Below, piece after piece: positions 799 to 43,345 of a stretch of 64,000 nucleotides of DNA (within the stretch, counting starts at the first letter, position 1; each line of letters begins with the position of its first letter). The translations under genes and the position numbers were made by a program. The notes below the pieces were generated by a model. That model did not search any database, was not told the DNA's origin, and was given only the letters and a program-made list of their open reading frames with translations. Source of the stretch: an uncultured Clostridia bacterium (GTDB taxonomy: Bacteria > Bacillota > Clostridia > TANB77 > CAG-508); contig CAOXTD010000001.1 in the NCBI GenBank assembly GCA_948560265.1, positions 9,439 through 73,438 of the forward strand. Direction: 5' to 3'.

Positions 799-896
799 AC
801 ACTCCTTTTATTTTAATTTGTCGTTTGAGTATAACTCAAACGCATTTAAAGTATATCACTAACTCCTTAAGGATACAAGGGGTTTAAGATAATTTA

Positions 897-1382
897 TTAA
901 TGACTAAAAATATATTGAATACCACCATAAGTTGCAGCAGTAACAGCTAAAACAAGGATTCCAGCAGTAAGTACACCAGCTACAATTGGTGGAATAGCCT
1001 TTTTAGGTGGTAAGTTCAAGAAGTTAGCAATTAAAGAACCAACCCAAGCACCAGTACCAGGAATCGGAATAGCAACAAATAAGAATAAGGCTAAAGCTGT
1101 GTAAGTTTGTAGTCTTTCGTTCTCTTCAATTTTTTTAGTAGCTTTATTGGTAGCCCAGTCAATAATAACTTTAAAAGGTTTCCACCTACCGAAAAAATCA
1201 AATAAAGGACGAATAAACTTTACAATAAAGTAGATAGGAATGATATTTCCTAAAAAGCTACAAATAAAAGCTTCGAAATAAGAAAGTCCCATTCCAACAC
1301 CAATGGGAATAGCCCCTCTAAGTTCTATAATAGGTACCATACCAATGATGAATGTAATTAAATATTTTAAAACAATTGGCAT
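897..1382 (-). CDS. Small integral membrane protein, COG2426 / Sm_multidrug_ex-like (putative small multidrug export protein)
   Basis: 161-aa ORF with about 4 hydrophobic segments. It has the N-terminal motif PIIELRGAIPIG that I associate with Pfam PF06695. Confidence 0.65.
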   Translation of the reverse strand: MPIVLKYLITFIIGMVPIIELRGAIPIGVGMGLSYFEAFICSFLGNIIPIYFIVKFIRPLFDFFGRWKPFKVIIDWATNKATKKIEENERLQTYTALALFLFVAIPIPGTGAWVGSLIANFLNLPPKKAIPPIVAGVLTAGILVLAVTAATYGGIQYIFSH

Positions 1383-1630
1383 TTTTTTGCCTCCTTTTCA
1401 TTTTTCATAAGCCTTATTTTATAATATCAAGCATGCTTTGTCTAGTGATAAGGCAAAAATTAATAAAAACCTTAGGGAATACAACAAAGCACAATAATAT
1501 GACAAAGTGATTGTAATAATTGTCATAAGAAAGACATACAAACTTAACAATTCAAAAAAAATCGATACAAGCCTAGAAAATCCGTAAGAAAAAGCAAAGC
1601 TATTTATTAGAAAAAAGAAGAAAAGTGCGA

Positions 1631-1658
1631 TTGACACGTTTCTTTTTTTATTTATAAT
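1631..1658 (+). promoter_or_regulatory. Sigma-70-type promoter for the surface-protein cluster
   Basis: TTGACA (1631-1636), 16-nt spacer, TATAAT (1653-1658); about 50 nt upstream of the RBS and start at 1709. Confidence 0.5.
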
Positions 1659-1708
1659 ATGATACTAATCGTAAGCTAAAACGAAAATTGGAAAGAAAGG
1701 AGCCAAAA

Positions 1709-3407: not shown

Positions 3408-3442
3408 AAAATAAGAAAAATATATATGTAAGGAGGAAAAAG

Positions 3443-10897: not shown

Positions 10898-11383
10898 ATG
10901 GGAAGAAGAAGCAAATCTAGAAGTTTAATCAGTACACAGAGCCTACTCATTATTTTATGCCTTTTGCTAATAGCAGTAGCAGTACATATGCTATTTTCAG
11001 AAGATGACGAAAAAACTGTGGTAGGAGAAGCTAAAGAGCAAACACAAGCACAGAATCAAGAGAAAAATCAAGTACAAAACAAGGCACAAACAGAAAATCA
11101 AACAAAACCTACTACAAATAGCGAAATAAGTAAAAAAGGCGAAGCAAAAGTAGTGCAAAGTGAAAATAGTGCAAACGAAATCAATGAGCAAGAAGCCAGG
11201 AAATTAGCAGCCAAGCAATTCAAAGAATTGGACGAGAAATGGGTAAGAGAAAAAGAGCTAGAAGTATTAGAATTTTCAAGAGCAAATGAATATTATTATT
11301 ATATATCATCAAAAGAAAATACAGTAGAAATCAAAAAAGATGGTGGAAAAATTACTAGAATTAATAGTGTGCCAGTACAATAA
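10898..11383 (+). CDS. Small membrane-anchored protein with a Q/N/E/K-rich linker and a compact C-terminal domain (PepSY-like, tentative)
   Basis: RBS AAGAGGAG plus ATG. N-terminal TM (LLIILCLLLIAVAVHMLF), a low-complexity QAQNQEKNQVQNKAQTENQ stretch, and a C-terminal ~70 aa (EARKLAAKQFKELDEKW...YYYYISSKENTVEIKKDGGKITRIN). A terminator follows. Confidence 0.7.
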   Translation: MGRRSKSRSLISTQSLLIILCLLLIAVAVHMLFSEDDEKTVVGEAKEQTQAQNQEKNQVQNKAQTENQTKPTTNSEISKKGEAKVVQSENSANEINEQEARKLAAKQFKELDEKWVREKELEVLEFSRANEYYYYISSKENTVEIKKDGGKITRINSVPVQ

Positions 11384-11889: not shown

Positions 11890-14800
11890 ATGAAACTAAG
11901 CAAAAAACTAAGGAAGAGACGAAACAAAAAACTATTAACACTCCTTGTGGGAGCAGTAGCGACTACCAGTGTGGTATTAGCAACACAGCTAACAGACTTT
12001 AAAACTCTAACAGAAAATTTATCTAAACTTGGAATGCAAAGAGAAAATAATGCATACCAACTTTTAAGCGATAGTCAAGACACTACCGCTCATTTGCCAA
12101 CCCTCACAGATGAAGCAAAAGAAAATATTGGTGTAGCAGCAGGAAATAACTTTACAGCTGTGCTAAAAGCAGATGGAACTGTATGGACATGGGGTAATAA
12201 CAACTGTGGTCAATTAGGAAATGGAGAAATCCTAAATGCCGCAACCTATGAACTAACACAAGTAATTGGTGTAGGAGGAGAAGGGCATCTAGAAAATATT
12301 AAACAAATTGCAGTAGGAACTAATGAAGTATATGCCTTAACCAAAGACGGAAAAGTAATAGCATGGGGAAGAAATAACTATGCACAACTTGGTAGAGGTG
12401 CCACAGGAAATTCAGGAACACCAGAATATGTACTCACACAAGTAGACATAACAGACGAAGAAGGTAACAAAACAACACAAGATGTACCACTAGAAAATAT
12501 CAAGCAAATCACAGCAGGTGAAAGACATGCCTTAGCCATTGACAATAATGGAAATGTATGGGCATGGGGATTAAACCATGTAGGACAACTAGGATTAAAT
12601 GTAATATCAACTACTTCTAGCAATCCAAATTACAAAAAAGCATATGCAGTTAAAATGCAAAAAGAAGTAGAAGTAACAGATGAAGAAGGAAACATAACAA
12701 CTAAAACGGTAAACCTAGACAATGTAAAACAAGTATCAGCAGGAAATGATTTTTCAGTAATTTTAACCAATGATGGAAAAGTATATTGCACAGGAATTGG
12801 AACATCAGGACAAATTGGAAACAACGCAGCAGTAAATGTCATGATACCAACACAAGTACAAGGTTTAGAAGATGTGGAAAAAATAGATGCAGGAGGATCA
12901 CACACACTTGCATTAAAAAATGACGGAACAGTATGGGCATGGGGACTAAATCGATATGGACAATTAGGAATTAATACAGCAAGTACCTCCAGTAGTAATG
13001 CTTCATACAAGAGAATATATCCAGTACAAGTATTAAAAGCAGCAGGAACACCACTAGAAGATATCACAGAAATTAGTGCTAATTTAGAAACCAGTTATGC
13101 TATTACTAAAACAGGAGAAGCCTTTGGTTGGGGACTAAATACCTCAGGACAAATAGGGGATGGAACAGCAGCTAATAAACTGATAGCAACACAAACCAAG
13201 AAACCAGCAGGAGAATACATCACAGGAACTAAAATGTTATCAACAGGACAAAACACAAATGCCCATTACATCATAGACGAAAAAGGTGACATTTATGGAA
13301 GTGGACTATCTACTTCTTACCAAATGTTAAGTGACAGAGTAACTGCCACAAATGTTGCTACTAGACTAGATGAAAGCTATTTCAAACTAAGCAACAATCA
13401 ATCTTACCTAGAAGTAGGAAACACTTTAAACTTACAAGTAGGCTACTATAACGGACTTAATCTACTAAACAGAAAAGTAGTACCAGGAAATGTAACTTTT
13501 AGAAGTTCAAATGAAGACATTGCCACAGTTAGTGCCAATGGAACCATAACCGCAAAAGCAAAAGGATATGTAACCATTATTGCAGAAGACACCACAAATG
13601 GATATACAACACAAAGTATGATCAATATAGTAGCAAAAGGTGCTACAGCCCTTCCACAAGTAGCTAGTGGAACCTTAGCAACCGTTTATCTAAAAGAAGA
13701 TGGAACCGTTTGGACATCAGGAGATGGTGCAAATGGAATGTTAGGAAATGGTTATACCAAAATTATCAATAAACCAGTACAAGTAAAAATTGGAACAAAT
13801 GAATATTTAACAGATGTTAGAAAAGTAGAAATCGGAACAGAACATGTAATAGCACTTAGAAAAGACGGAACTGTTTGGACTTGGGGACTTGGAACCTCAG
13901 GACAACTAGGAGATGGAGCAAATGCCACAAGATATTATGCCACACAAGTTGTAGACGAAACAGGAGAAGATTATTTACAAAACATCATAGATGTAGCAGC
14001 AGGAATAGACTATTGTTTAGCATTAAAACAAGATGGAACAGTTGTAGGTTGGGGAGTTGGAACCAACCATTCACTAGGAGTTAATAATACTGCCAATAGA
14101 GCTATACCTATCAAAATGCATGACAGCTATAACATTATTCAAGTACAAGGTGGTTCAGACACAAGTACAGTTCTAAAAGCGGACGGAACTGTACAAGCAG
14201 TAGGACTTGGAACTTCAGGACAATTAGGAGATAACACAGCAGCTACCAAAGGAGAGTTAGTATATGCTATTAATGAAACACTAGATGGAAAACTAACAGG
14301 AGTTGTTAGAATTGTCACAGGTAGCCACCACACGATAGCATTAAAAGAAGATAAAACAGCAAGGATATGGGGTTACAACAATTATGGACAAATTGGTATG
14401 AACAATACCACAAACTATAAACATGCCATTCCACTTAAAAACGTTGGAAACACAGATATTATGCAAAACATCAAAGATATAGCAACAGGACCATCAGCTA
14501 CCTATGTATTAGACACACAAGGAAATGTATATGCAGTAGGACTAAACACTACAGGGCAATTATCTATTGGAAATGCCACTACAGTTAAAATATTCACACA
14601 AGCAAAAGACGAAAATGGTGAACCATTAACAGGTGTAGCTACTATTTCTAGTTCAAAAAATACTACTTTTGGCTTTGCTTTTACAGACGGAAGTATTGGC
14701 GTAACAGGACTTGGAACTAGTGGACAACATGGAAATTGGACATTAGCTAGTAGTAATAAAATGACAAGAATACAAGGAGCAATTTTAGATACAGGTAACA

Positions 14801-35800: not shown

Positions 35801-38800
35801 AGGTGGTTAGCTTACCAACACCAGTAACACAAATTCCAATCAAAGTACAAACCACAAATGGAACTGTATTTGATTACACATTAGATGTTATCAAACAATC
35901 TACCATAACGGCATTAGAAAGCCTAACCGTTAATGGCACAGAAGCAACAGCAACAGGCGGAACTAACTACTCTATTGTAGTAGAAGACGCAGACTTAGCT
36001 ACAGTTAAAGCAGTTACTACACACGAAAAGGCAAAAGTAGGAATTGATAGTAATGAAGTAGCTATACATGAAGCAACTCAAGATTTATCATTAGTAGATA
36101 CTTTAATTAGAACTGTACCAATTAAAGTGATTGCAGAAAGCGGAAAAGAAGTCAACTATGTATTAACCATTTACAAAAAATCAGCAGTAACAGAATTAGA
36201 AAGTGTAACAGTTGATGGAAAAGAAGCAACTAAGAATAATCACTTAAATTACAGTATGGTAGTTGAAAAAGAAACTACAAGTGTAGACATTAAAGCAATA
36301 GCAATATATGATTTAGCAAATGTTAATATCAATAACTTAGGGGCAGAAGTAAAACAAACCACAAGAACAATTACTTTAACAGGAGATGTTACAACTGTTA
36401 AAATAAAAGTTGGAGTTGGTGAAGAAGAAAAAGAATATACTTTAACCATTACAAAAAAGATAGACGGATCAGATTTAGCAGACCTATTTGTCAATGGTGA
36501 AAAAGCTACTAAGATTAGTGATAATCAATATGAAGCAGTTGTTGCAAGTAATAGTCAAACAGCAGAAGTATTGGCAATTGCAGCAGTAAATACAAGTAAT
36601 GTTCAAATTGGAGCTAACTCTCAAGAAGTAGGAAAATCACAAGTCACAGTTGCTACCTTAGAAAATGCTAATATTTACACAATTACCATTACAGACGCAG
36701 AAGATGTAAGCAAAACAGCAACTTATACTTTAACGATTAAGAAACCATCAACAGATAATAGCTTAAAATATATCCGTATTTCTAATAATGAAATATCTAT
36801 AGATGCAACAAGAGAAAACGGAACCGATATTTATAGAGCAAAAATCAATGAGAAATATGAGAACTTAACGATTACAGCTGTTGCAAATTATGAGTTAGCA
36901 GAAGTTGCTATTGAAGCTAACAGCTATCAAGTAAAACAAGACACTTTAGCTTATACATTTAACACAGAAAATGCGACCTTGCAAATTAAGGTAAAACCAC
37001 AAGATGGACAGGAAAAAACTTATACTTTAATTTTAGAAAAACAGTCAAGTGATGTTACCTTAGAATATGTAAAAGTCAATGGGGCAGATGCTGTTAAATC
37101 AGAGGAAAAAGCAGATACTTATGAAATTACATTAACACAAAAAGCAGAAAATGTAAGTGTTGAAGCAAAAACTACTGACAAAGCAGCAGAAGTAGCATTA
37201 AACAATATTGTTTATGAGCTACAAACAATTACAAAACAAATTGCAATGGATGCAAAAGAAATTACAATTAAAATCAATGTAAAAGCAGAAGATGGTACAA
37301 CGAAGACATATGACTTAATCATTCACAGTGTACCAGATAATACAAAATTAACAGAAGTTTCAGTTAATGGAGTGAAGGCAACTCTACAACCATATTCTAA
37401 TAAATATGTAGTAAGAGTACCAAGTAACTTAAGCACTTATGCAGTTACAGCAAAAGCAGAGGACAGCTTAGCAACAGTTAAGATAGACAACTTTGACGCT
37501 ATTTTAGCACAAAGTACACAAAATATTGCAAAAGCTGACCCAGTACCTACAAAAGTGGCAATTGAAGTTACTGCACAGGACAAAGAAAGCAAAGAAACCT
37601 ATGAGTTAGAAATCTACCCAAGAGCACAAGACACAGTTTTAGCTTACTTAAAAGTAGATGAAAGCTTAGTAGAACTATCTCAAGATGGACAATACCATGT
37701 TAAAGTAGCAGGCTCTACACAAAATGTTACAATTGAAGCAAAAACTGGAGATGAGAATGCTACTGTGGGAGTAGATGCAGCAGGAACAGCCAATATTGTA
37801 ACAACAGTAGGAACTTTAACAGGAGATGTTACTGTATTTGATATTATTGTTACCGCAGAGGATGGAAACACAAAAACTTATAAGCTAAATGTAGAAAAAC
37901 TATCTAGTGATACCAGCTTAGTAGGAATTTATGTGGACGGAATTGAGGTAAACCCTGTGGATGGAAAATATGTAGCAAAAATTGGAAACAATAGTACAGC
38001 TATTGTAAAAGCAATTGCTACTAACCCAGAAGCAAAGGTATCTGTAGACGGAAACACAGATGCATTAAAGGAAAATCAAAATACAATAGATGTTAATGAA
38101 GAAGAAAAAACAATAGAAATTACAGTAACTGCAGAAGATGGTACAAAGAAAATTTATCCACTTACTTTACAAAGAAATTCTACAGATAATACCTTGTTAT
38201 CTATTTCCGGAAAAGATGTATCACAAGATAATGTGGTTCAAACTTCTGAAAATACTTACCAAATGATAGTATCTAATGAATTAACAACTCTAGAGCTAAC
38301 AGCTGTAACTTCAAGTAAAGTAGCAGAAGTAAAAATTGAAAATAACAATTATGAAGTAAATACACAAACAAAAGAAGTTGCTTTACCAAATGATACCAAT
38401 ACAGTTGTTATCACAGTAAAAGCAGAAAGTGGAGAAGAAAAAACTTACACACTAACCATTATTAAGAAATATATTTTAACTTTAGATCAGATTACAGTAG
38501 ATGGCATAGTAGCTGAAAAGCAAGAAGATGGAACCTATATTGCATGGGTAGACCCTACTAATACACAAAGCCAAGTAGTTGTAACACCAACTTCAAGTAA
38601 GGTACAGGTAAAAGTGGGAGAAACCATAGATAATATTGGAACTACTACTTACACAGTTACTACAACAGAAGATGAAACAATTAGTAAAATAATTGTAAAA
38701 TCACCAATTGAAGAAGATCAAGTAGAATATACTTTGAAGATTATGAAAAAATCTCAAGATACTACACTTGAATATGTCAAAGTGGACAGTCAAGTAGGAA

Positions 38801-41800
38801 CAGAAGAAGAGGATGGAAGTTATACAGTTAAAGTGCCAGTACAAGATGATAGTTACAAAATGGAAGTAAAAGCTTCTAACCAATATGCTCAAGTTAAAAT
38901 TGAAGATAACGCATTTGCATTGGGAACAGATAGTTATACTTTAGATTTAACAGGAGTAAATGGTAAAACGGTAACAGTTACAGTAAAGGCACAAGACGGA
39001 ACAGAGAAGGTATATACAGTAAATGTACAAAAAGTATCTAGTGATAATACACTTCAAACCGTTAAAGTAAACAATGTAGAAATTACAGAACAAGACGGAA
39101 TTTATAGGGCATTTATCAAAGAAGATGTCACAAATGCTAACTTGTATGTAGAAACTACTCATAGTGGAGCTACTATCAAGTTAGGAGAAGATGACGAAAA
39201 AGTACATACTGTTACAAAAGATATTACAATGGATCAATCAGAAAAAACAATTGCAATGAAGGTAACAGCAGAAGACGGAAGTGTAAAACAATATACTATT
39301 ATCATTGCAAAAGAATCTTCAGATATTGAAATCCAAAGTGTTAAAGTGGATAACAAAGGTGCTATTGTGGTAGATGAAGAAACTTACTATATTACAGCAA
39401 CACCTGGAGCAACAGAAGCTCAAGTTGAAGTAATTGCAGCAAATCAATATGCTTTTGTACAAATTAACGGAAGTGAAAAACAAGTTGGTCAAAACACTGT
39501 TACAGTACCTTTACCAGCAAGTACAAAAGTAGTAGCTGTACCAATTGTCATCACAGCACAAAACGGAAAAAATAGTAAAACATATACTTTAAATATTGAG
39601 CAAGTATCCAATAATACGAATATCACCAAAGTAACTGTCAATGGAAAAGAAGTTGCAACCTATGATGAAGAAACAAAAACTTATACTCATATTGTGGACT
39701 ATTCAGTAGACGAAGCAGTAGTTACTGCTGAAACAGAAAATGCGGAAGCAACAGTTAGAATAGAAGCAGGAGCATTTAGTAAACATATAGCAACAGAAAC
39801 TGTATCAACAGCAGGAGAAATCAATGATATCACCATTACGGTCGTAGCAGAAGATGGAACAACAGAAAACAGGAAATTAGTCATCAAGAAATTATCACAA
39901 GATGCGTCTATCTTAAAACTATTTGTCAATGAAGTAGATATTGTTGCAAATGCTGATGGAAGCTATACAGCAGAAGTGCTAGAAAGTTTATCAAAAGCAA
40001 CTGTAAGAGTTAAAACCACAAATAAGGATGCTCAAATCTGGTTAGATGGAGAAGCCTTAGAAAATAAGGGAGAAGGAACAAAAGAATACAGTATAGCAGG
40101 TACTAGAAAGATAACTGTTCCAATTAAAATCATAGCAGAAGATGGTGTTACAACAAATGAAACTACTTTGACAATTAACATTGTTTCAGACAACAAGAAC
40201 TTAGAATATGTTAAAGTAAATGGGGCAGTTGTAACAGAGTATGATGAAGAAACAAATACCTATAAGGCATTTATACCAGCAACTAGTACATCAGCTGCTA
40301 TTGAAGCAAAAGCAATTAGCCCTTATGCAACCTTAAACATTGACGGAAATGCAGGAACGCAAGTAATTACTTATACAGCCACAACAGAGGAAGATATTAC
40401 TTATGTTTATGTAGATGTCATTGCAGAAGATGATAGTGTTAAAACCTATACAATTGCAATGCAAAAACAATCAACAGATAATACCTTAAAAGATTTATAC
40501 AAAGATGGTACACAAGTAGAACCACAAGAAGATGAAAACTATATAATTGATGTACCAGAAGAAACAAAAGAGGTAAGTCTAAAAGCAATTGCAAATAACG
40601 AATTTGCCACAGTAGCAATTGGTAACGAAACAGCAGAAGTAAAAGAAACCACTAAGACAGTTACCTTAGGTGCAGGCAAAACAACAGTGGTTAATATTAC
40701 TGTAACAGCACAAGATCAATCACAAAGAGTTTATACAGTAACAATTAACAAAGTATCTGCGAATAATCATGTAGAGTATGTCAAAGTAAATTCAAATATA
40801 GTCACAGACTATGATAGTGAAACTAAGACTTATGAAGCATTTATTCCAGTAGGTAGTACAAGTGCTGCTCTAGAAATTCAAACTGAAAATGCTTATGCAA
40901 CAGTTGAAGTGCTAGATACAAGTGTAGTACACAATATAAAAGTTACACAAACAATAGAAGAGGAAGAAACTTTAATACCAGTAATTGTAACAAGTGAAAC
41001 TGGGGTGGACGAAACTTACTACATCAAGTTAACCAGAATTTCAACAGACAATACGATAAAAGAAATCTATGTGAATGGAACTTTAATTACAAAAGATGAA
41101 GATGGAAACTATATCGCAGAAGTCGCAGAAAATAGTGTGGATGCTCTTGTCAAAGTGGTAGCAAACAACAAATACGCAAATGTCCAAATAGCTAATGGGG
41201 AAGCTAAAGTGGAAGTGAGCGAGGAAACTGTAACGTTATCTACTGATAAGATTACCAATGTATCGATTACTGTTACTTCACAAAGTGGAGCGGTTGCAAA
41301 TGAAACATTAGTGATTAAGAAAGTATCTGATGATACAGGAATTAATACAGTATTAGTTAATAACATTGAATGTAAAAATTATGATGAGAAGACTAAGACT
41401 TATACCGCCTATATTGGAGCAGATATAGAAGAATCTGAAGTAGCCGTTATGGCAAATAGCCAAGGTGCTCAAGTTACAATTGAAGATGTAACAGGAACAG
41501 GAAATGCAAGTAAAACAGTTGCAACTACAGCACAAACTACTAAGTTAGCAGTTACTATTACATCTGAAACAGGAAAAACTGCAAAATATACGATCAACAT
41601 TGTAAAAGAATCTGCAGATGCGACAGTAGAGCTAGTGAAAGTAAATGACAAAGAAGTACAAGCACCTTATGATGTAACCATTAAGAAATTAGATACAAAA
41701 GCAAAAATCTATGTAAAAGCAACAAATGGAAATGCTACTGTAAAAATAGGGGATGAAGTAGCTGAAAAAGGAAGCAGCGAGGTAACTCTAACTATTCCAC

Positions 41801-43221
41801 TAGAGCAAGATGTGATTGTTGTACCAGTTGTTGTAACTGCTCAAAATGGTATTGCAAAAGAAACCTATAACATTACTTTAAGAAGAGTTAGCAATAATAC
41901 AGGAATTAAACAAATACTAGTCAATGGGGAAGACGTGGATTTAACAACATTTGAACACATTGTGAAAAATGTAAATGAATCAAGTATTGTGATTATTCCA
42001 GAGGATGAAAATGCAACCGTTAAGTTAGATAGTACAGATTCTAGTACAAATGATAACACTTGGAAAGTGGCTACTTCTACAACTACTATTAGGGGAATTA
42101 CAGTAACAGCACCAGATGGAACTGAAAAAGAATACACACTTACTTTAATGAAAAAGGTAACAATTTCAGGAACTATCACAGATGAAAACATTATGGATAA
42201 ACATATTGCAAAAGTCTTTGTTTACCAAACAGATGACACAAGAAAAGAAAGTACCAAAACAGATTTGAACGGTATTGAACTAGATGAAACAAATGGAACA
42301 GTTCAAACTGATATTAGGGAAATTATTGCAGAGGTAGAAACAGAGCCAGATGGAAGTTATGAAATCGTGTTAGAACCAGGAGAGTATGATGTGGTATTCG
42401 TAAAACCAGGATATTTAACACATAGAATTACTCATATTGATATTTCTAAAGGAAAAGGTGCAGAATTAGAAACTGTAAAAATGTTAGCTGGTGATGTTGT
42501 TGAAACAGGCGAAATTGAATTAGACGACTTAGTAAGTATCAACGAACAATATGGTTTAACAGTAAGTTATGCAGATGGCGTAAATGACGCAAATGTAAAA
42601 TATGACTTTAATGGTGATGGTATCGTAGATAGCAAAGATAGAAATATCTTAAAGAAAAACTACGGTAAAAAAGCAAAAACAGTAAAATGGGTTGATCCAG
42701 ACGAAGTAGCAAAACAAGAAGCGGCAAAAGCAGCAAGAAAAGCTACAGCAAATGTAAGCAGTGAGACTAGGGGAACTTCTGCTTATGAAGGACAATTCGT
42801 ATTACCACTAAATAGCAAATACACCATTACATCAAACTATGGGGACAGATTTGGACCTATTACACAAGATAATGAAAAACACACAGGAATTGATATTGCA
42901 GGAGAACATCATGCAGAGGTATTAAGTGTTGCTGATGGGGAAGTAACATGGGCAGGCGTACAAAATGGTTATGGTAACTGTATTGAAGTGAAACATATTG
43001 TTAATGGGGAAACAATATACAGCTTCTATGCACACTTATCAGAAATCAAAGTACAAGTCGGAGATAAAGTAGTACAAGGCCAAGTAATTGCTTTAGAAGG
43101 TGGAGATCCAAACACTGACCCTAATCCGGGGGACAGCACAGGACACCACTTACACTTCGAGATGAGAACCAACTCTGGTTATGGAAATGATGTAGACCCA
43201 AGCAAGTATATTAATTTCTAA
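11890..43221 (+). CDS. Giant secreted/anchored multi-propeller protein (~10,443 aa; 10,448 aa if the GTG at 11875 is used) with a C-terminal M23 peptidase
   Basis: Uninterrupted reading frame of ~31.3 kb. GAGGG RBS 8 nt before the ATG at 11890. N-terminal signal/anchor MKLSKKLRKRRNKKLLTLLVGAVATTSVVLATQ.
Module order: 17 x (7 RCC1 repeats + Big_2), 23 cadherin-like repeats, CarboxypepD_reg-like, dockerin-like, M23. A terminator lies at 43346-43375. Confidence 0.92.
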   Translation: MKLSKKLRKRRNKKLLTLLVGAVATTSVVLATQLTDFKTLTENLSKLGMQRENNAYQLLSDSQDTTAHLPTLTDEAKENIGVAAGNNFTAVLKADGTVWTWGNNNCGQLGNGEILNAATYELTQVIGVGGEGHLENIKQIAVGTNEVYALTKDGKVIAWGRNNYAQLGRGATGNSGTPEYVLTQVDITDEEGNKTTQDVPLENIKQITAGERHALAIDNNGNVWAWGLNHVGQLGLNVISTTSSNPNYKKAYAVKMQKEVEVTDEEGNITTKTVNLDNVKQVSAGNDFSVILTNDGKVYCTGIGTSGQIGNNAAVNVMIPTQVQGLEDVEKIDAGGSHTLALKNDGTVWAWGLNRYGQLGINTASTSSSNASYKRIYPVQVLKAAGTPLEDITEISANLETSYAITKTGEAFGWGLNTSGQIGDGTAANKLIATQTKKPAGEYITGTKMLSTGQNTNAHYIIDEKGDIYGSGLSTSYQMLSDRVTATNVATRLDESYFKLSNNQSYLEVGNTLNLQVGYYNGLNLLNRKVVPGNVTFRSSNEDIATVSANGTITAKAKGYVTIIAEDTTNGYTTQSMINIVAKGATALPQVASGTLATVYLKEDGTVWTSGDGANGMLGNGYTKIINKPVQVKIGTNEYLTDVRKVEIGTEHVIALRKDGTVWTWGLGTSGQLGDGANATRYYATQVVDETGEDYLQNIIDVAAGIDYCLALKQDGTVVGWGVGTNHSLGVNNTANRAIPIKMHDSYNIIQVQGGSDTSTVLKADGTVQAVGLGTSGQLGDNTAATKGELVYAINETLDGKLTGVVRIVTGSHHTIALKEDKTARIWGYNNYGQIGMNNTTNYKHAIPLKNVGNTDIMQNIKDIATGPSATYVLDTQGNVYAVGLNTTGQLSIGNATTVKIFTQAKDENGEPLTGVATISSSKNTTFGFAFTDGSIGVTGLGTSGQHGNWTLASSNKMTRIQGAILDTGNIYETYVNDTIKLNINIKPAFNLNVDSEKTLQIGELTYQSLDEEIATVSTDGTVIGMKEGTTGIVITDTTNELETTAYVTVGKRDFSDIHKIVAGTSHTVLLKQDGTVWAWGGNNVGQLGNGEIFAKQATQATQVLNPEGTGYLTDIVDIAAGNNFTVALKRNGTVVAWGENTYGQLGNTNGTAERPIYVVDMYANQLTGVVDISAARDHAAAVKADGTVWAWGRNDYGQIGNNSTLATCAYAVQVLDATGTDYLKDIKQVSVGQAFVAALAKDGTVWSWGAGTLGQLGNGAKTTKKLPVQATGVTDVKKIVAGNAGVAVLKADGTVWCWGINRYGTLGYGTLSTSSSNANYLKTTQIQVKIDANTYLENVVDIGGTMESRFALTQDGIVYGWGLNTTGELGDSTTTNKAYATKNLRRYKDEVEKTVVKLNESSSGYTNYMIKEDGSILANGKVVNGQILDGGLYSDARTCVEDVLASYMEFANRIEYVKQGTTKKLEVRGVENLNVFAKAPELGNITWKSMNENVVSIDQNGNITAKELGQATIIAKDDKHGYRAQATIYVTANKAEAITAPMVVQGTGFTVALKADGTVWTTGLNNNGALGDGTTTNRENLEPVKIDENTNLTNVVRIAAGNSHVLAVTKDGYVYAWGLNGNGQLGINSTAKQTYAQKVLDETGENYLQNIIDVAAGGLHSIAIDNQGNVYTWGKGGNYQLGNYATANKLIPVRVWDTYNVVKAAGGAEYTVLLRGDGTAQGTGLNTNGWLAMGDATTRYTPLEMGSNAEGAIQREIYDITAGANHTIFLKEDGKVYTVGLNTSGQLATGNATASNVLVVAQTKNEKGELVDLENIASISCGGATSFAVSKNGEVYSTGLNTSGQLGLGNKTSPINTFTKVLDYQGENTLQNVTTIGKGAGNTINSSYITKDGTLYTAGDNTNGQLGNGTYIASQLPVIVGNAELKVANTQMKLTVNGEEQIALSLELGFNVYDNTKEVGTNLTYEATNPEVVTVSNTGKVTGKRLGTTRIKITDKTNDLEKYVPVTVLHSYGYTESKVSSGINFSVALKEDGSVWAWGVGTSGRLGNGATTNQINEVPVLAPNGKDQLTGVKDIAVGYDSAMALLEDGTMVAWGNNGSYNLGDGTNTDRSIPVYVVDANGDKIQNITKIAKGNDFSLALTKDGEVYAWGWNAYGQLGNGGTSTTVVPAKVKDQTGKGTLKGIIDVQCGMRWSMALGEDGTVWTWGYNVDGELGNGTTDQVNVPKISKLSNIDKLATSAYAAMAIDKDGQLWSWGWNGYGQLADGTTTSRPTPIKPKLDANTIVTDVIDVGTAGGTHYILDSNYKVYAVGQNGQGQIGDNTTTNRSYFTQVKAKYGETLTDKFVKISSSVARPDSNTDTSTAYLTREDGSIFGLGKNSSYQLFGKNTDVIKCAKPMQTSYLEITQRINRIKIGENTKLVLNMEQNFNIYSKTPVTGNITWTSSNESIVAVDKDGNVTGLKEGQATITAKDDKYGYIATAIVYVTRNTANTITIPQVSQGQKFTIVLKADGTVWASGQNNVGQCGIDSTVANIGKLTPVKTDKGANLNNIVKIVSGLEYTLALTKDGKVYGWGLNSNGQLGINSKTNQFTATYMLDEEGENPVTDVIDIAAGDCFSTILKSNGELYTVGNGTYSQLGNGTTTTTMVLGKMEEMQNVVQVVNGGYHTIMLRGDQTVWTVGRNRYGEMGINSIKDSSTATAQGIGIARQVINQDLNGVLKNITQVTAGGYHSAALSNTKEVYSWGYGADGQLGTGKASNFYYPQPVLSYKPTAEADEQITGITQIGSSERSIFFLTENNEVYATGENSNYQLSQDNTTDLLKPSGLYDYTGEKYIDQIANVPTAAKNIYNTAVIKQDGTVWVSGLGANGQVGNEEFQTAKLYTRMGIAKLQVSDKIVTIPQGGTHTLNVSVNQGFNVYEGQTDKANKLQFTSSNTSIATVSENGVITAVKQGEVRITIYDPEHDWTTSSIVKVTRDAQDKVKAEVSTGNAGIILKTDGSVWSTGGNTYGERGVGDKAKHLQETPVLDPNGKDHLTDVISISAGQYFNAAVKRDGRVVTWGLNNYGQLGNKTNVNSEIPVYVLDANGNPLTGIIQVSCGFEFTIALKEDGTVWTWGYNYYGQLGDNTASNRNYAVQVKDRSGLGYLQGICQVATNRNTTFALTDTGEVYSWGYNYDGQLGDGTRNTGSSAGGRRKILPVKALINDVARIVGGMHSTIALKNDGTIWTWGLNRYGTLGYGASSTSDNSNYAKATPMQVKIDSATFLTNVVEIGTAHEADYAITKDGKAYSWGYNNVGQLGVNNTTNYSYAQLVKRMYGELLTDKVVTLNKGVSASTCYMIREDGTILGVGHNATTQRMLSNRNVNFTTVQELRPDFMEVNQRISYVKQGETLKLDVHIAQNLNAFAGHIQLGNLSYASSNPEIAEVSNDGTVTAVGLGETTITIKDLDHGYQAQAVVYVIQNNEKAITMPDISQGDTFSVFLKADGTVWTVGLNSNGQCGDGTTINRSKPVRVKINSKEYLSNIVKISAGVDHVMALSKTGEVYTWGFNDVGQLGNGSTTRGVFASKMLDSNGQNPISNVIDINSGYKFSLMLFNDGTVWGVGRNVYGELGILNNANKSLPVQMDGIANAIRVQASSSGASIQIANGTVWTTGYNYYGTLGQNGTNTGSSAAAQGRNIPNPVINNARDAVLRNVVKLSGGLHQNIVLQEDNTVWAWGYNNVGQYGTGNTTSFAYPVRVKTMGVDPIDKVVNIGTSGYNTLLQTVDAQNKKHTWISGYNNNGQLGNNTTTNATSFIPLNNKDNTGEAENIDILPDDARGYQTSGVIDTNGTVWTVGLNNYGQLGDDTVYNRKNIVQVGEIALKVEDIIFTMNPNDTKQIKAYIEDSFNVYIKENQVGTLKFESLDTAIAEVSDTGVVTAKGIGDTLIRVIDTTRDIQSAVYVKVIKKQEDMQYEPMVDGGSNHSVALKGDGTVWAWGYNKYGQLGNNTTVTTEMPTQVLGKDANGFLTDIQMIASGTNHVLALKNDGTVWAWGYNNYGQLGDNTQITRYTPVQVLSEDANSPLQDIIYIAAGTNYSVAVNKKGEVWTWGQNDYGQLGDGTKTAKYTPVRVKANLSGIIKVACGIRHTVALKADGSVYTWGDNANGQLSDNTNSQRIIPVKVLETVDTYLSDAISISASSYSTHILKSNGTVISSGLGTSGQLGNNGKVNTKLPVTAVGVGGTDTLTQIRNIKSGANTTYALRKDGTVVAWGIGTSGELGNETFANSLFPVEVVNHTQDGIMSNILYIGAGANHGLAVEDTGYVEVWGLNNQKQVGDITIAKTAHPLYIGSKVVAVPSKVTMEMGDTQALKVSMQSFNLFRAEEDLNRNVTYQSLNETVATVSADGVITAKAMGVTTIVVKDGLSNKVTTVEVSVLENGAIATPKVVSGINHTVALKADGTVWTWGYNHHGQLGDGTTKSSYIPQKIGLTDVIDVAAGDHFSMALKKDGTIWVWGVNDRGQLAQGNTVESLTPVPVKGVNGDPLPKAKKITACRFQWLAILETGEVVGCGSNTGSILGDGTSTDKHLPVYMLDHTGSAHVKEVKDIGIGQCESFIVKEDGTIWSVGHNCAGGMGVGNTSAYSKIRQVQDTTGTGVLTNIIQVSCGGWYNLALDANGNVWAMGRNKEGELGINNTTNQTRPQKVLGVNGTGYLENIVRIEAGYYSSFAIDKAGNVYGWGYNNNGQLGINNTTTQKVPKQVLAGATGGNLDDVMFVSSNGYHTTFVKYDGTVWTTGYNGNGELGNDSTVKRLTVECISNPRLEVDQKYLLFGPNIGETKKVNVKVNSGFNLLTDTVPAGANTYKSLNTSIAQVDQNGNVTSTGSGTTYIKITNDTLGLATTVKVVVPYRDGMIVPKIVGGANHYVALKSDGTVWTWGYNGYGQLGIGNTEKQLEPVKTNMTDVIDIAAGTNYTAVLKRDGTVWVTGQNNYGQLGQNDTANTTNFVQVKSENGLSHLEGIVAITAVNYHMAALKSDGTVVAWGYNAYGQLGNNTTTTAKLPTRVRRVSSIMDIAAGGNFLILLDADGSVWATGHSNYGQLGQNNTTASRIPIKMLNPAGSGEMTGIIKIGAGSNHTVLLGENGKVYSVGYNGYGQLAIGNTTQKNLLVEAKEVGGAVITNAADIVAKNHTTTILRKDGSVYTAGYNGYGQAGNGTTVANKYFTKMLGEYGEGDFTNVLLGAQTNNTTAVANNIGSVYTAGYNAYGQLGDKTTKSATYLVGISHTSLEVKEPIMTIQQIGSQKQIECKLNLGFNILYNNLETENYTYKVLNKDIASVDQNGVVTALKYGSTSIEITNQETGNKATVILNVVRDGDIANPKVASGVDYNVALKSDGTVWTWGYNNYGELGLGDNTRRLEPTKVNITGVIDIAVGNHHTLLLKQDGTVWAMGLNNYGQIGNNTTTNAMLPVQVQGLENIIRIEAGANHSIALKSDGRAYGWGYNAYGQLGDNTTTRRSLPVEVRRINNLKAISAGNHSTAALDTDGNVWVWGLNTSGQLGLGTKTNVILPTKLTSVSKIAQVEMGINYGMVVTENGEVYSFGVNDVGQLGIGNKTNQTTPKQVLQQDKTPLTNVEYVAAGTKHVFAKTKNGLAYGWGLDTSSQLGDDQTTNKLNAVPITYAGGADEITEVLEIDAGNAHSILVREDGTVWTVGKNNYGQLGDETTVNKKSWVCISDIRIKVKETSITISSVGGKYNLNPVLGVGFNLLYNDGADGDFAYASKDTATADVSEKGVITGIKRGKTKIGITETNTEKTIYVDVYVLDEKDVAFPQIVTGESTTIALKADGTVWTWGQNDKGQLGLGDNKNRIAPTKVEIDNVVKIATSGNHTLALKKDGTVWAWGQGTAGQLGTGLLQNSNVPVQVRDETGVNVLQNIKEIATANQLSMVVTKEGKVYAWGLGTSGQIGNGAKSNQTMPTKTLGLSNITKIAGGNLSCYAITDEGEAYAWGYNNRGQLGDGTNTVRTQPVKIPNLTGMIEISAASTDQVIALKDDGTVWGWGYKTLGALTDVGGSTPKQIAGKTNRMKDIASISAGYYAGLAITDEGKVLGWGTNGFGGLGNGTTTNTAIPTNVMENSTKELDQIFVIAMGKNYSVYAKEDGSVWATGTNEFGQLGNTSTVTIHTPENISQDYISTDKLELVFQELNVEQPINATYNLGFNLYNNTSDVKLTYTSDDDTIAAVGENGMVTSRNVGKTYITIRAGELARRVEVNVLQPQEIAAMDAQGGLRHTLALKTNGTLWAFGDNSYGQLGLGTVESTTYHKPQEVRLPENVKITKIAVGNNHNLALDTNGNVYGFGLNANGQLGNNANANSGELVKAEGLTNIVKIAAYKNISMALNKDGELFVWGEGYSKQPEKIEFHTKIIDMTGRIILSEQGSVWNMKNLNEKTPMLTNIVEIASGDSHHLALKADGTVYGFGANSYGQLGQGNTTNADKPVAIANLPKAESVKANLYTSYVLTTTGEVYSFGRNTKSSLGQNSKETYRATPTKIDSSKVQRISAGQNFGIYVDDEGFVYSWGNNDYGQLAQEAKEIITPSVIGTVKVQTDKDYITIQEGETKGISATLNNTFNLRKDVIASDGFTFESMNTGIATTQDIRVTGMKEGITPIVISHPASEQKSAIYVEVVRPNAKSVIDLKAGTDFNLSLKADGSIWSWGSGAYGKLGVGSLENYNEPQQIPTTTRTRQIAVGLEHIVVLSENAKAYTAGKNGNGQCGNGTSVNSKELVEVLNENGKPLENLVMIAAYGNTTYLLDHDGIVYACGAGYNKVATKVANLPKMAQISGHYGITMDKKVVDLSTGNPVEKLQNIIKIAQGDNHTLFLSQDKTVYSLGTNTNGQGGIGTKTNIMTPTQVKNNVGTGILTTVVDIAAGKNFSMAVLEDGTVYTWGSNENNKLGTDQTNDQILPRRNTNIQNAIKVSAGTNHAAFVANDGRVYAWGNGENGSLGNGVDANSILPVLVGSEEVVADNHHVTLHIDEETTLNANIKSFNLINDLKSEGLTYKSNNAEIVLVDNNGKVTGLKEGKASVTVTQNGTDHQAIIQVTVLRKNAEVNPLVKTTNSSNVILKSDGTVWTYGANDNGELGNGNNTASDNLNKVVFNPEVKIEEIAVGENHTLALDENGEVWAWGSNSYYQLGTSEIANSNRPIKLELGSKVIKIVAGYNSSYAITEDNNLIAWGLNLDGQLGLGNNDNRLLPTKVRTLKNVLDVTAGKSHTVVVTTDGTVYTTGNNSFGSLTGDDYKRNTFKPATNLSNIVYISAGEYHNIALSTKNEVYVWGYNVYGQLGTGNTSNLSTPVKVDIANAKQVSSGKSHSSILTKDGKLYSTGLNSLGQLGTTSKDNQVTFTLVDTIDNVYGIDTGNTYDMAIKNDGTVWAWGDYYHGTTAIRTKSNSRVPTQIGIQNFYLVENDIAVNKDTSKQLQVNPQFEFNVFENNTLENNFSYTSLNEEVATVDENGNVTGKKVGTTWVKVAENTSKAEQIAIIRVVEPGNKVAPKVAGGSDYAVVLKADGSVWSFGYNSNGQLGDSSFVASKVPKEINILKSYTDITAGDNFTLILKNDGTVWGVGDNQYGQLGLGDRASRQTPTVIPNLENVVKIAAGSKHSIALTKYGEVYTWGANTNGKLGTGDTQTKDVPVKIEIPGANIIDVAAGEGYIVLVDSNGSIYVSGKLGNIDSKVPVSVNGITNATKVAAGKDLIVLTKQGNVVKVGEQTTTLYDKKDAVDIAAKGTNYLVLNNSGKLFDGNTSSNGEIGDVLTIGSGMNNTYYIANSGLVYAVGPNQYGSLGNDTTDSSDVYTLVGKRSFTVSPNNVLMSTNDSKDLSLTSERYNVLKQDNRTIDDFDWVSNDTDIVTVEGPAKIKAAAEGETTITVTQKDTGAKVEIVVVVEPLEAQRLEKLAVNEVDAQVSGSMKYEVTIESNEDTGSLVISTKDKTDKISIDGGTTWFENGSLTQVVSLPTPVTQIPIKVQTTNGTVFDYTLDVIKQSTITALESLTVNGTEATATGGTNYSIVVEDADLATVKAVTTHEKAKVGIDSNEVAIHEATQDLSLVDTLIRTVPIKVIAESGKEVNYVLTIYKKSAVTELESVTVDGKEATKNNHLNYSMVVEKETTSVDIKAIAIYDLANVNINNLGAEVKQTTRTITLTGDVTTVKIKVGVGEEEKEYTLTITKKIDGSDLADLFVNGEKATKISDNQYEAVVASNSQTAEVLAIAAVNTSNVQIGANSQEVGKSQVTVATLENANIYTITITDAEDVSKTATYTLTIKKPSTDNSLKYIRISNNEISIDATRENGTDIYRAKINEKYENLTITAVANYELAEVAIEANSYQVKQDTLAYTFNTENATLQIKVKPQDGQEKTYTLILEKQSSDVTLEYVKVNGADAVKSEEKADTYEITLTQKAENVSVEAKTTDKAAEVALNNIVYELQTITKQIAMDAKEITIKINVKAEDGTTKTYDLIIHSVPDNTKLTEVSVNGVKATLQPYSNKYVVRVPSNLSTYAVTAKAEDSLATVKIDNFDAILAQSTQNIAKADPVPTKVAIEVTAQDKESKETYELEIYPRAQDTVLAYLKVDESLVELSQDGQYHVKVAGSTQNVTIEAKTGDENATVGVDAAGTANIVTTVGTLTGDVTVFDIIVTAEDGNTKTYKLNVEKLSSDTSLVGIYVDGIEVNPVDGKYVAKIGNNSTAIVKAIATNPEAKVSVDGNTDALKENQNTIDVNEEEKTIEITVTAEDGTKKIYPLTLQRNSTDNTLLSISGKDVSQDNVVQTSENTYQMIVSNELTTLELTAVTSSKVAEVKIENNNYEVNTQTKEVALPNDTNTVVITVKAESGEEKTYTLTIIKKYILTLDQITVDGIVAEKQEDGTYIAWVDPTNTQSQVVVTPTSSKVQVKVGETIDNIGTTTYTVTTTEDETISKIIVKSPIEEDQVEYTLKIMKKSQDTTLEYVKVDSQVGTEEEDGSYTVKVPVQDDSYKMEVKASNQYAQVKIEDNAFALGTDSYTLDLTGVNGKTVTVTVKAQDGTEKVYTVNVQKVSSDNTLQTVKVNNVEITEQDGIYRAFIKEDVTNANLYVETTHSGATIKLGEDDEKVHTVTKDITMDQSEKTIAMKVTAEDGSVKQYTIIIAKESSDIEIQSVKVDNKGAIVVDEETYYITATPGATEAQVEVIAANQYAFVQINGSEKQVGQNTVTVPLPASTKVVAVPIVITAQNGKNSKTYTLNIEQVSNNTNITKVTVNGKEVATYDEETKTYTHIVDYSVDEAVVTAETENAEATVRIEAGAFSKHIATETVSTAGEINDITITVVAEDGTTENRKLVIKKLSQDASILKLFVNEVDIVANADGSYTAEVLESLSKATVRVKTTNKDAQIWLDGEALENKGEGTKEYSIAGTRKITVPIKIIAEDGVTTNETTLTINIVSDNKNLEYVKVNGAVVTEYDEETNTYKAFIPATSTSAAIEAKAISPYATLNIDGNAGTQVITYTATTEEDITYVYVDVIAEDDSVKTYTIAMQKQSTDNTLKDLYKDGTQVEPQEDENYIIDVPEETKEVSLKAIANNEFATVAIGNETAEVKETTKTVTLGAGKTTVVNITVTAQDQSQRVYTVTINKVSANNHVEYVKVNSNIVTDYDSETKTYEAFIPVGSTSAALEIQTENAYATVEVLDTSVVHNIKVTQTIEEEETLIPVIVTSETGVDETYYIKLTRISTDNTIKEIYVNGTLITKDEDGNYIAEVAENSVDALVKVVANNKYANVQIANGEAKVEVSEETVTLSTDKITNVSITVTSQSGAVANETLVIKKVSDDTGINTVLVNNIECKNYDEKTKTYTAYIGADIEESEVAVMANSQGAQVTIEDVTGTGNASKTVATTAQTTKLAVTITSETGKTAKYTINIVKESADATVELVKVNDKEVQAPYDVTIKKLDTKAKIYVKATNGNATVKIGDEVAEKGSSEVTLTIPLEQDVIVVPVVVTAQNGIAKETYNITLRRVSNNTGIKQILVNGEDVDLTTFEHIVKNVNESSIVIIPEDENATVKLDSTDSSTNDNTWKVATSTTTIRGITVTAPDGTEKEYTLTLMKKVTISGTITDENIMDKHIAKVFVYQTDDTRKESTKTDLNGIELDETNGTVQTDIREIIAEVETEPDGSYEIVLEPGEYDVVFVKPGYLTHRITHIDISKGKGAELETVKMLAGDVVETGEIELDDLVSINEQYGLTVSYADGVNDANVKYDFNGDGIVDSKDRNILKKNYGKKAKTVKWVDPDEVAKQEAAKAARKATANVSSETRGTSAYEGQFVLPLNSKYTITSNYGDRFGPITQDNEKHTGIDIAGEHHAEVLSVADGEVTWAGVQNGYGNCIEVKHIVNGETIYSFYAHLSEIKVQVGDKVVQGQVIALEGGDPNTDPNPGDSTGHHLHFEMRTNSGYGNDVDPSKYINF
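12124..35610 (+). repeat. 17 tandem supermodules, each an RCC1-type beta-propeller followed by a Big_2 Ig-like domain (unit 1.2-1.46 kb)
   Basis: The RCC1 signature recurs (e.g. AAGNNFTAVLKADGTVWTWGNNNCGQLGNG). I counted seven blades in each of the two modules I dissected (1 and 14).
Big_2 domains recognised by ...N.(D/E)IATVS..G.VTA...G...I....; their centres lie near 13530, 14935, 16380, 17800, 19240, 20700, 22155, 23605, 25015, 26425, 27810, 29160, 30510, 31745, 32990, 34310 and 35505. Confidence 0.85.
35611..42156 (+). repeat. 23 tandem cadherin-like beta-sandwich (Pfam PF12733-like) coding repeats (~285 bp each)
   Basis: Each ~95-aa unit begins (S/T)..L..(I/L/V).V(N/D)G and ends ...(T/E)Y.L.I.K.S. 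Examples of unit endings: DYTLDVIKQS, NYVLTIYKKS, TYTLTIKKPS ... EYTLTLMKKVT. Counted by eye. Confidence 0.75.
42157..42672 (+). other. CarboxypepD_reg-like beta-sandwich plus dockerin-like EF-hand pair (domain region of the giant CDS)
   Basis: ISGTITDE...PDGSYEIVLEPGEYDVVFVKPGYLTHRI matches the carboxypeptidase-regulatory-like fold signature. One degenerate loop (GDVVETGEIELDDLVSI) and one canonical Ca-binding loop (DFNGDGIVDSKDRNILKKNYG, 42601-42672). Confidence 0.6.
42796..43218 (+). other. M23/LytM metallopeptidase domain (C-terminus of the giant CDS), catalytic motifs intact
   Basis: HxxxD as HTGIDI (42881-42898), YAHL, and HxH as GHHLHFEM (43141-43164). Flanking ...GYGNCIEVKH...GDKVVQGQVIALEG... 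is typical of Peptidase_M23 (PF01551). Confidence 0.85.
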
Positions 43222-43222
43222 C

Positions 43223-43339
43223 ATGTCGCAGTGGGGACGTTAAGTCAGCTGTGTGAAGCGAAGCGAACTACAGATGATTTATGCGATTGAGCATAGCGAA
43301 ATGTATAGTTAGTGCAATATCTGTCCCCCAATACGACAT
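43223..43339. repeat. REP-like palindromic element, copy A (starts 2 nt after the giant-gene stop)
   Basis: Left arm ATGTCGCAGTGGGGACGTTAAGTCAGC. Right arm CTGTCCCCCAATACGACAT is its imperfect reverse complement. Shares the GGGGACGTTA core with the copies at 56256, 59235 and 62599. Confidence 0.6.
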
Positions 43340-43345
43340 TTTTGC

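Follow-up and report, generated by a model that had tools for sequence, protein, structure and literature searches.

Giant proteins built mainly of RCC1 repeats rank, to our knowledge, with the largest gene products of bacteria in mammalian gut metagenomes; they have neither an assigned function nor a known mode of attachment. A gene of this type, ending in a domain of the M23 family of peptidoglycan endopeptidases, lies on a 64,000-nucleotide stretch of DNA, hereafter the window, from an uncultured mouse-gut Clostridia bacterium (GenBank assembly GCA_948560265.1, contig CAOXTD010000001.1, positions 9,439 to 73,438 of the forward strand). The locus raises the question of how such a fibre is held at the cell surface and whose wall an enzyme at its end would cut. 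A first, sequence-only reading had the protein held at its N-terminus and the enzyme at its free tip. The analysis presented here points to a non-cellulolytic cohesin–dockerin surface assembly that displays a peptidoglycan endopeptidase, a reading to which we assign a probability of about 0.45; the anatomy on which it is built is much firmer than the function.

The window is a piece of low-G+C (33.7%) bacterial chromosome, in which a single uninterrupted open reading frame extends over positions 11875 to 43221 of the forward strand, its final 354 codons being 42157 to 43218. The frame is open from a GTG at 11875, and translation probably begins at the ATG at 11890, which has a GAGGG ribosome-binding site 8 nt ahead of it. 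The resulting protein has 10,443 residues, a length called identically on an independent mouse-gut contig (L003). Relatives were collected by scanning one genome per GTDB species, which yielded 330, and the best 78 loci are surveyed below for the tail; the closest public relatives are uncultured mouse-gut Clostridia metagenome-assembled genomes (MAGs), with 91–99% identity in the tail (L012–L015). The giant gene is laid out as follows.

11890 to 43221, forward strand: giant gene (open reading frame analysis; gene of equal length in an independent assembly).
11890 to 11985, forward strand: N-terminal Sec-type signal, MKLSKKLRKRRNKKLLTLLVGAVATTSVVLA followed by TQ (residues 1 to ~32; n-h-c layout).
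12142 to 35590, forward strand: RCC1-like β-propeller array with Big_2 or Ig-like spacers (residues ~85–7,900; Pfam WD40_RLD, RCC1, RCC1_2 and Big_2; self-search with the first propeller).
35965 to 42156, forward strand: about 22 tandem Cadherin-like β-sandwich repeats (residues ~8,026–10,089; Pfam PF12733 in 14 stretches; 21 units by self-search).
42157 to 42486, forward strand: putative X module, a CarboxypepD_reg-like sandwich, of an X-dockerin dyad (residues 10,090–10,199; Pfam PF13620 below threshold; fold match).
42487 to 42690, forward strand: putative dockerin (residues 10,200–10,267; Dockerin_1 below threshold; fold match).
42691 to 42795, forward strand: K/A/E-rich linker (about 35–40 residues; secondary structure of the model).
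42796 to 43218, forward strand: Peptidase M23 catalytic domain (residues 10,303–10,443, the extreme C-terminus; Pfam and fold).

That an intact M23 domain forms the last part of the giant protein, as the sequence-only reading had stated, is confirmed. Peptidase_M23 (Pfam PF01551) matches with 83.7 bits (E = 1.1e-23; gathering cut-off 28.7) over profile positions 2–91 of 96, and the characteristic motifs are found at 42880–42897 (HTGIDI, with HTGID at 42880–42894), 43027–43041 (YAHLS, the His codon of YAHL being 43033–43035) and 43141–43164 (GHHLHFEM, with HLH at 43147–43155). A loss of catalytic residues was looked for by alignment with 120 homologues and none was lost: His242 and Asp246 of the HxxxD motif and His293 of YAHL are invariant, while His331 and His333 of HxH are at least 90% conserved. 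An AlphaFold2 model of the last 354 residues has a mean pLDDT of 90.4, with values above 90 in the M23 domain, which in Foldseek searches resembles ShyA, NMB0315, LytM and lysostaphin (E from 1e-10 to 1e-7, with ShyA and NMB0315 at about 1e-10) and superposes on LytM with an r.m.s.d. of 1.3–1.6 Å, the range over the M23-family matches being 1.3–2.7 Å. Against four close relatives, dN/dS is 0.05–0.34 for the X-dockerin part and the M23 part alike, and the tail of the giant protein, with an ω of about 0.2–0.3, is under purifying selection. The domain is thus very probably an active peptidoglycan endopeptidase. Its nearest solved relatives by sequence are NMB0315, the gonococcal M23 enzyme, StM23 and Csd3 (E from 1e-14 to 1e-11), as well as LytM and ShyA. 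The comparison with lysostaphin and LytM that the sequence-only reading had proposed accordingly places meso-diaminopimelate (mDAP)-type DD-endopeptidases closer (E = 1e-14) than lysostaphin (E = 1e-8), with a fold that matches LytM. A DD-endopeptidase-like specificity of the MepM, ShyA and NMB0315 type may be proposed, because the sequence is nearer to NMB0315, gonococcal M23, StM23 and Csd3 than to lysostaphin, and because the top NCBIfam matches of the domain are Pgp3 and MepM.

Attachment is likely to depend on the two modules that precede the enzyme. The sandwich and the dockerin-like calcium loop noticed in the sequence-only reading are present as described, both with Pfam scores below threshold: the CarboxypepD_reg-like sandwich (PF13620) reaches 27 bits against a cut-off of 32.3, and Dockerin_1 reaches 17.9 bits against 22.9 while spanning profile positions 2–54 of 57. 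The first dockerin loop is degenerate (DVVETGEIELDD) and the second is a canonical calcium loop (DFNGDGIVDSKD); precomputed matches to PF00404 and PF13620 are present in many homologues. In the structural model, the two modules together match the type II X-dockerin (X-Doc) chains 5g5d_B, 4wi0_B, 4u3s_B, 2b59_B, 4fl4_C and 3kcp_A (Foldseek; 185–193 aligned columns, E from 1e-8 to 8e-8), with target TM-scores of 0.62–0.66 for the four stand-alone X-Doc chains 5g5d_B, 4wi0_B, 4u3s_B and 2b59_B. These chains represent the X-Doc of CipA (5g5d_B, 2b59_B, 4fl4_C and 3kcp_A) and that of ScaA (4wi0_B and 4u3s_B). In cellulosomes, X-Doc dyads attach the primary scaffoldin to cell-bound anchoring scaffoldins, and by its modelled fold the sandwich and dockerin ahead of the M23 domain look like an X-Doc of this anchoring type. 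The K/A/E-rich linker between dockerin and enzyme, another feature of the sequence-only reading, is real and predicted to be helical (model residues 181–200), followed by a short flexible stretch of low pLDDT (residues 202–207).

A candidate partner for this dyad is encoded 1.6 kb upstream of the giant gene, next to an adaptor-like gene.

3443 to 10252, forward strand: candidate anchoring protein of 2,269 residues (Pfam Big_3, sequence, cohesin family profile and AlphaFold2 fold).
1688 to 3407, forward strand: adaptor-like gene with signal peptide, cohesin-like (~1800–2400), Cadherin-like, X and dockerin modules, frameshifted at about 1935–1948.

The 2,269-residue protein comprises, in this order, a signal with a long n-region (..STVKA↓AVDP), a cohesin-like domain of about 200 residues (~3779–4366), at least nine Big_3 Ig-like domains, a P/T/E-rich linker, and a transmembrane helix followed by an RRR stop-transfer sequence and a cytoplasmic tail of about 85 residues, so that the cohesin-like domain sits at the distal end of a stalk of about 2,000 residues. 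The cohesin-like region itself has no Pfam Cohesin match, even at E up to 10, and neither a phmmer search against the PDB, which returned noise only, nor a five-sequence profile, which had no match there, identified it. A word-index homologue search gave just three relatives of this domain; an HMMER scan of 1.84 billion representatives gave 23, each of them at the N-terminus of a large Big_3 protein that has a conserved signal-peptidase site, [VA]-x-A↓A. A profile of 13 family members matches type II cohesins with E from 1e-4 to 2e-2, among them ScaB of A. cellulolyticus (3l8q, E = 1e-4; 4u3s_A, E = 9e-4) and ScaC, and Pfam Cohesin (PF00963) is matched by three of the 13 (best E = 2e-4). The AlphaFold2 model of the domain (pLDDT 72, pTM 0.74) retrieves cohesins at all Foldseek ranks from 1 to 44, those of type II first (E = 3e-6, TM-score 0.5–0.6). 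The family profile, the three Pfam matches and the fold ranking together mark the modelled N-terminal domain of the stalk as a probable type II-like cohesin. The tail of the giant and the head of the stalk match the two chains of one solved complex, 4u3s. The adaptor gene combines both kinds of module, with Dockerin_1 at 24.7 bits, above the cut-off of 22.9, and a cohesin profile match of E = 9.5e-18. The order adaptor, cohesin stalk, small PepSY-like gene (see below) and start of a large gene is found again in another species (L094), and cohesin-like genes flank genes with an X-Doc–M23 tail in L026, L054 and L069.

At its other end, the giant protein carries a signal of the Sec type, whose (−3, −1) signal-peptidase site is VLA↓TQ; this n-h-c layout and an xLA↓ site recur in the homologues of L033 (TLA↓V), L094 (SLA↓V) and L026, and from this sequence pattern we infer that the signal peptide is cleaved. 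A C-terminal LPXTG motif with hydrophobic segment and charged tail was not found. The giant ends in the M23 domain, and its sole LPxTG-like string, LPVTA, is internal (residue 4212 when the GTG at 11875 is taken as the start). Attachment of the giant by sortase was ruled out for want of a sorting signal; the sortase gene of the window (58461–59234) is 15 kb away. RCC1-type giants of Clostridia have also been described as being without transmembrane anchors (West-Roberts et al., 2023, bioRxiv 10.1101/2023.11.21.568195). Because the Sec signal looks cleavable, LPXTG is missing, the tail has an X-Doc fold and a type II-like cohesin is carried by a membrane stalk encoded next door, the C-terminal region is the likely attachment point, and the giant is likely to be tethered through its X-Doc. 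The M23 domain is then probably placed at a hub atop the stalk and not some 10,000 residues from the cell. The same four observations speak against the earlier proposal of N-terminal holding with a remote enzyme, which was not borne out.

An assembly of the following kind may be envisaged. The giant would be exported by Sec and its signal peptide removed; its C-terminal X-Doc would bind the type II-like cohesin, either directly or through the adaptor that carries both cohesin and X-Doc, and would thereby retain the protein on the cell. With the cohesin at the outer tip of the 2,269-residue membrane-anchored Ig-like stalk, the RCC1 and cadherin-like array of about 10,000 residues would be the free, outward-reaching part, and the M23 domain, only about 40 residues past the dockerin, would lie at the hub on the stalk, outside the wall of the producer. 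There it may act as a zinc endopeptidase, cutting peptide cross-links in walls brought to the hub by the fibre, most likely those of other bacteria or of shed wall material. An external target, meaning a wall that does not belong to the producer, is a tentative proposal, somewhat short of even odds. It is favoured by the predicted place of the enzyme atop a long stalk, by the binding-type character of the fibre and by the published idea of attack through dockerin-borne hydrolases. The sequence-only reading had also favoured another cell's wall, and part of its case survives: the cohesin at the distal end of a stalk of ~2,000 residues, beyond the producer's wall, is why an external target can still be entertained. 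Its argument from a distance of ~10,000 residues finds no support, and the nearest stand-alone M23 proteins act in the context of their own envelope.

The latter observation belongs to the case for a rival explanation, in which the enzyme would locally cut the thick peptidoglycan of the producer, either for the passage or insertion of the giants and the stalk or for the separation of daughter cells joined by fibres, with the X-Doc holding it at the assembly site. Such a role would be analogous to that of the wall hydrolases dedicated to conjugation, flagellar and secretion machines in Gram-positive bacteria. The closest stand-alone M23 relatives are membrane-anchored proteins of about 220 residues, 52–60% identical in the M23 domain, two of which are encoded directly after a VirB4-like ATPase in Gram-positive type IV secretion system (T4SS) clusters (P0074 in L007; P0076 in L093), while others belong to a conserved chromosomal two-gene unit; because this context is mixed, it does not settle the matter of self versus non-self. 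The cassette also ends many different large proteins, up to five per genome, which is more like a general export or anchoring module than a specialized weapon, and neither an immunity-type gene nor a variable toxin tip was found. On the other hand, the M23 domain leaves the Sec channel last and could open the wall for the preceding 10,000 residues only in trans; the ~2,000-residue stalk carries its cohesin at the distal tip, beyond the wall; and the relatives that work on their own wall use a short design of transmembrane segment plus linker, without a dockerin. We regard a self-wall role as doubtful, while giving it serious consideration.

The topology of the sequence-only reading, in which an uncleaved N-terminal signal-anchor would leave the M23 domain as a free distal tip that lyses or grips neighbours some 10,000 residues away, with the dockerin binding the target, appears improbable. 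A signal-anchor could be formed by the 17-residue hydrophobic segment, which comes after a strongly basic n-region; the enzyme is intact, and a use in attack has been proposed for wall hydrolases that bear a dockerin (PMC6487960; PMC6403190); however, the small-residue (−3, −1) site after the h-region is conserved in the window and in homologues, the RCC1-type giants of West-Roberts et al. are described as lacking transmembrane anchors, the X-Doc is an anchoring device in every solved case that was matched, and a matching cohesin is encoded next door on a membrane stalk. Slimmer still is the chance that the M23 domain is mainly a non-lytic binding or processing module, whether an adhesin for the walls of other bacteria, a muropeptide scavenger or a protease acting on, for instance, Gly-rich linkers. 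M23 domains are indeed reused as non-lytic binders or activators, EnvC, NlpD, SpoIIQ and DipM being among the matches, and the remainder of the giant consists of binding-type repeats. Non-catalytic LytM domains have lost their metal ligands, however, while here all of them are kept across the 120 homologues, under purifying selection.

Several observations weigh against the cohesin–dockerin assembly itself. The dockerin and X module of the giant score below the Pfam cut-offs, and the first calcium loop is degenerate. The cohesin model is of moderate quality (pLDDT 72, TM-score ~0.5–0.6) and the stalk protein itself lacks a Pfam Cohesin match. The pairing of the two, and with it the geometry proposed for the assembly, is suggested by fold class and adjacency. 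Cohesin-like genes are visible at just four loci out of about 60; since the giant gene itself takes up most of the upstream flanks, this count is weak both ways. If the signal were an uncleaved anchor, the giant would be fixed to the cell by its N-terminus as well as by its C-terminal part. The small gene and the giant gene are separated by terminator-like hairpins, for which reason the cluster is not one obvious operon. Finally, the nearest free-standing M23 enzymes work in the envelope of their producers, which favours a self-wall role.

The tail is not peculiar to this window. A full X-Doc–M23 tail is present in about 66 of the best 78 loci. The organisms are uncultured gut Clostridia, and their hosts are mouse, human (UMGS, HGM, Hadza, Clostridium sp. 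CAG:440 and CAG:343), rabbit, goat and water deer. In 39 loci the frame has not closed by the edge of the fetched DNA, 3,333 codons upstream, and the complete proteins among the relatives have 1,800–3,560 residues. Stalk types vary, some consisting of RCC1 and Big_2 domains and others of an ALK/LTK glycine-rich domain with 16 Cadherin-like repeats. One rabbit-gut MAG has five copies of the cassette (L039, L040, L049, L059 and L064), and one 82-kb contig carries three. In the large relatives among these 78 loci the X-Doc is always accompanied by M23, and matches to M23 only are stand-alone proteins of about 220 residues. A relative may carry several large genes with this tail, sometimes in tandem and with differing stalks (L001, 12128–21452; L042/L054/L079). 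A polymorphic toxin or contact-dependent inhibition system was considered and ruled out: the tail is conserved over the ~66 loci while the stalks vary, and no immunity-type neighbour was found. A survey paper on polymorphic toxins has nothing on M23 or dockerin.

Two further neighbours recur beside such genes.

10898 to 11383, forward strand: small protein with a membrane anchor and, at the C-terminus, a conserved domain that is PepSY-like (family and Pfam/NCBIfam matches).
47528 to 48070, forward strand: secreted CAP/YkwD-family protein (Pfam CAP, E = 4.6e-17; TIGR02909, 134 bits, below the cut-off of 171).

The small PepSY-like family adjoins X-Doc–M23 giants in at least ten loci and shares the C-terminal pattern ...KQFKELGE...YYYISSKENT.EI...G.ITRINS.PV. 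PepSY is matched by one of its 11 members (E = 8.9e-6), with a weak NCBIfam match to the metalloprotease chaperone CpaB (E = 3.8e-4), and the family profile has no meaningful match in the PDB; to judge from these similarities, a chaperone or inhibitor of the M23 enzyme is a possible role. The CAP/YkwD protein is the most conserved downstream neighbour: 14 of 58 loci have it on the same strand no more than ~5.6 kb away. In nine of them the distance is 130–1,256 bp, and often it is 130–600 bp from the stop codon of the giant. As recurrent neighbours, both are candidate regulators. The sequence-only reading had suggested that a cognate immunity gene might lie nearby; no fem-like gene was found in the window and no conserved small immunity-like open reading frame directly downstream of the X-Doc–M23 giants among the downstream neighbours of the loci. 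Downstream of the giant, 1.6 kb (43222–44811) is without a convincing open reading frame or Rfam match and contains a perfect σ70-like promoter at 44394–44422; between close relatives the length of this gap varies from 432 to 1,650 bp.

The genes of the window include rpoB, rpoC, gdpP, sortase, ribosomal protein L9, dnaB and tilS, and a phage or mobile-element origin was ruled out by the presence of rpoB, rpoC, gdpP, L9, dnaB and tilS. No tRNA was found in the window, nor any RNA family by Rfam at gathering thresholds. The sortase gene is followed by that of a DUF6273 protein (58461–60560 for the pair) with a prepilin-like N-terminus (KGQKG↓ITLVALVV...), and the two probably form an unrelated surface-structure locus. 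In four species the adaptor gene is broken at one and the same codon by a +1 frameshift (window ~1935–1948, L094 ~1890–1905, L026 ~12.3–12.5 kb and L054 ~11.7–11.8 kb), where a 0 frame ending in ...EF[RKQ]R[IN] and a stop is followed by GFDVRF... in the +1 frame. The nucleotide motif TTT-NAR-CGG-ATT-TGA-TG is seen in the window, L094 and L054, while L026, which falls outside the aligned range at this level, has KRN and a stop in the protein; no such break interrupts the adaptor homologues P0143 and L069. With its rare CGG before UGA, the motif is reminiscent of the prfB +1 site, and the break could reflect programmed frameshifting or recurrent inactivation. The rpoC gene (52708–56243) is likewise split, into overlapping reading frames of 179 and 1,008 residues with a frameshift near 53130–53150; because rpoC is essential, the split probably stems from an indel error in the record, and isolated frameshifts in the window may thus be artefacts.

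Among the closest known systems is the type II cohesin/X-Doc pair of cellulosomes (C. thermocellum CipA with SdbA/ScaC; A. cellulolyticus ScaA with ScaB; PDB entries 2b59, 5g5d and 4u3s), with which the locus shares a predicted X sandwich and dockerin in the C-terminal part of a secreted protein of very large size, as well as a nearby gene for a second, cell-anchored protein that carries a type II-like cohesin. The locus differs in that there are no glycoside hydrolases or carbohydrate-binding modules, the docked protein being an RCC1/cadherin-like giant; the protein does not stop at the X-Doc, whose first calcium loop is degenerate, but continues into a catalytic M23 domain. Cellulosomes are anchored through SLH domains or sortase, whereas the stalk described here has a transmembrane helix and a cytoplasmic tail. 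The enzyme shares HxxxD, HxH, the additional catalytic His and the fold with LytM, lysostaphin, zoocin A and the MepM/ShyA/NMB0315/Csd3 group, but is not accompanied by SH3b, LysM or another wall-targeting domain, so that targeting would fall to the dockerin and the 10,000-residue fibre. Gram-positive conjugative T4SS hydrolases, in whose clusters some of the nearest stand-alone M23 relatives are encoded, open the wall locally for a large machine; they have ~220–235 residues and an N-terminal membrane anchor, and no T4SS genes were found in this window.

The giants reported from gut metagenomes of mouse, human and rabbit are Clostridia proteins of more than 10,000 residues, dominated by RCC1 and predicted to be extracellular (West-Roberts et al., 2023), and the protein described here agrees with them in size, RCC1 content, gut Clostridia origin and lack of a membrane anchor. 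While those giants were described as having a single repeating domain type in Oscillospiraceae, the C-terminal quarter of the present protein consists of about 22 cadherin-like repeats, X-Doc and M23, with a cohesin gene adjacent; the term 'M23' is absent from the text of that paper. Dockerin-bearing wall hydrolases of rumen cellulosomes, which likewise join a peptidoglycan-degrading module to a dockerin, have been proposed as a device of defence or attack (Bensoussan et al., 2017, PMC6487960; reviewed in PMC6403190). These are lysozymes and D-Ala-D-Ala carboxypeptidases of ordinary size with enzyme-type dockerins, whereas the module described here is an M23 domain, placed behind an X-Doc of the anchoring type on a giant, non-enzymatic fibre. 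The combination of an X-Doc–M23 tail on giant fibres with a cohesin stalk was not found in the searchable literature. The components all belong to known families (M23, X-Doc/cohesin and RCC1 giants) and the combination is new: as predicted from sequence, an anchoring-type X-Doc is followed by an active-looking M23 domain, this tail is the conserved end of giant non-enzymatic fibres, and a transmembrane-anchored cohesin stalk is encoded alongside.

In its most far-reaching form, the proposal would be that of a bacteriolytic or adhesive machine resembling a cellulosome, in which several giant fibres per cell, with RCC1, cadherin-like or glycine-rich stalks, are plugged by their mechanically strong X-dockerins into cohesin-tipped membrane stalks with the M23 enzyme at the plug; captured cells would be cut open or fused to the producer in a contact-dependent predatory or episymbiotic lifestyle of Gram-positive gut bacteria, and the PepSY-like protein, the CAP/YkwD protein or both would afford self-protection. 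This extension is speculative and, as a whole, unlikely. If the assembly described above is correct, the RCC1 giants would have gained a mechanism of attachment, the binding of an X-dockerin to a neighbouring cohesin stalk, and the M23 wall endopeptidase would be the only catalytic activity on these proteins. The X-Doc–linker–M23 cassette would mark a whole class of giants across the gut Clostridia of mouse, human, rabbit and ruminants, and cohesin–dockerin assembly would serve not only polysaccharide degradation but also to display a wall-cutting enzyme on fibres with a length of hundreds of nanometres. With an X-Doc of ~180 residues, a cohesin of ~200 residues, an M23 domain of ~140 residues and two candidate regulators as testable modules, contact-dependent lysis by the surface fibres of Gram-positive gut commensals would become experimentally approachable.

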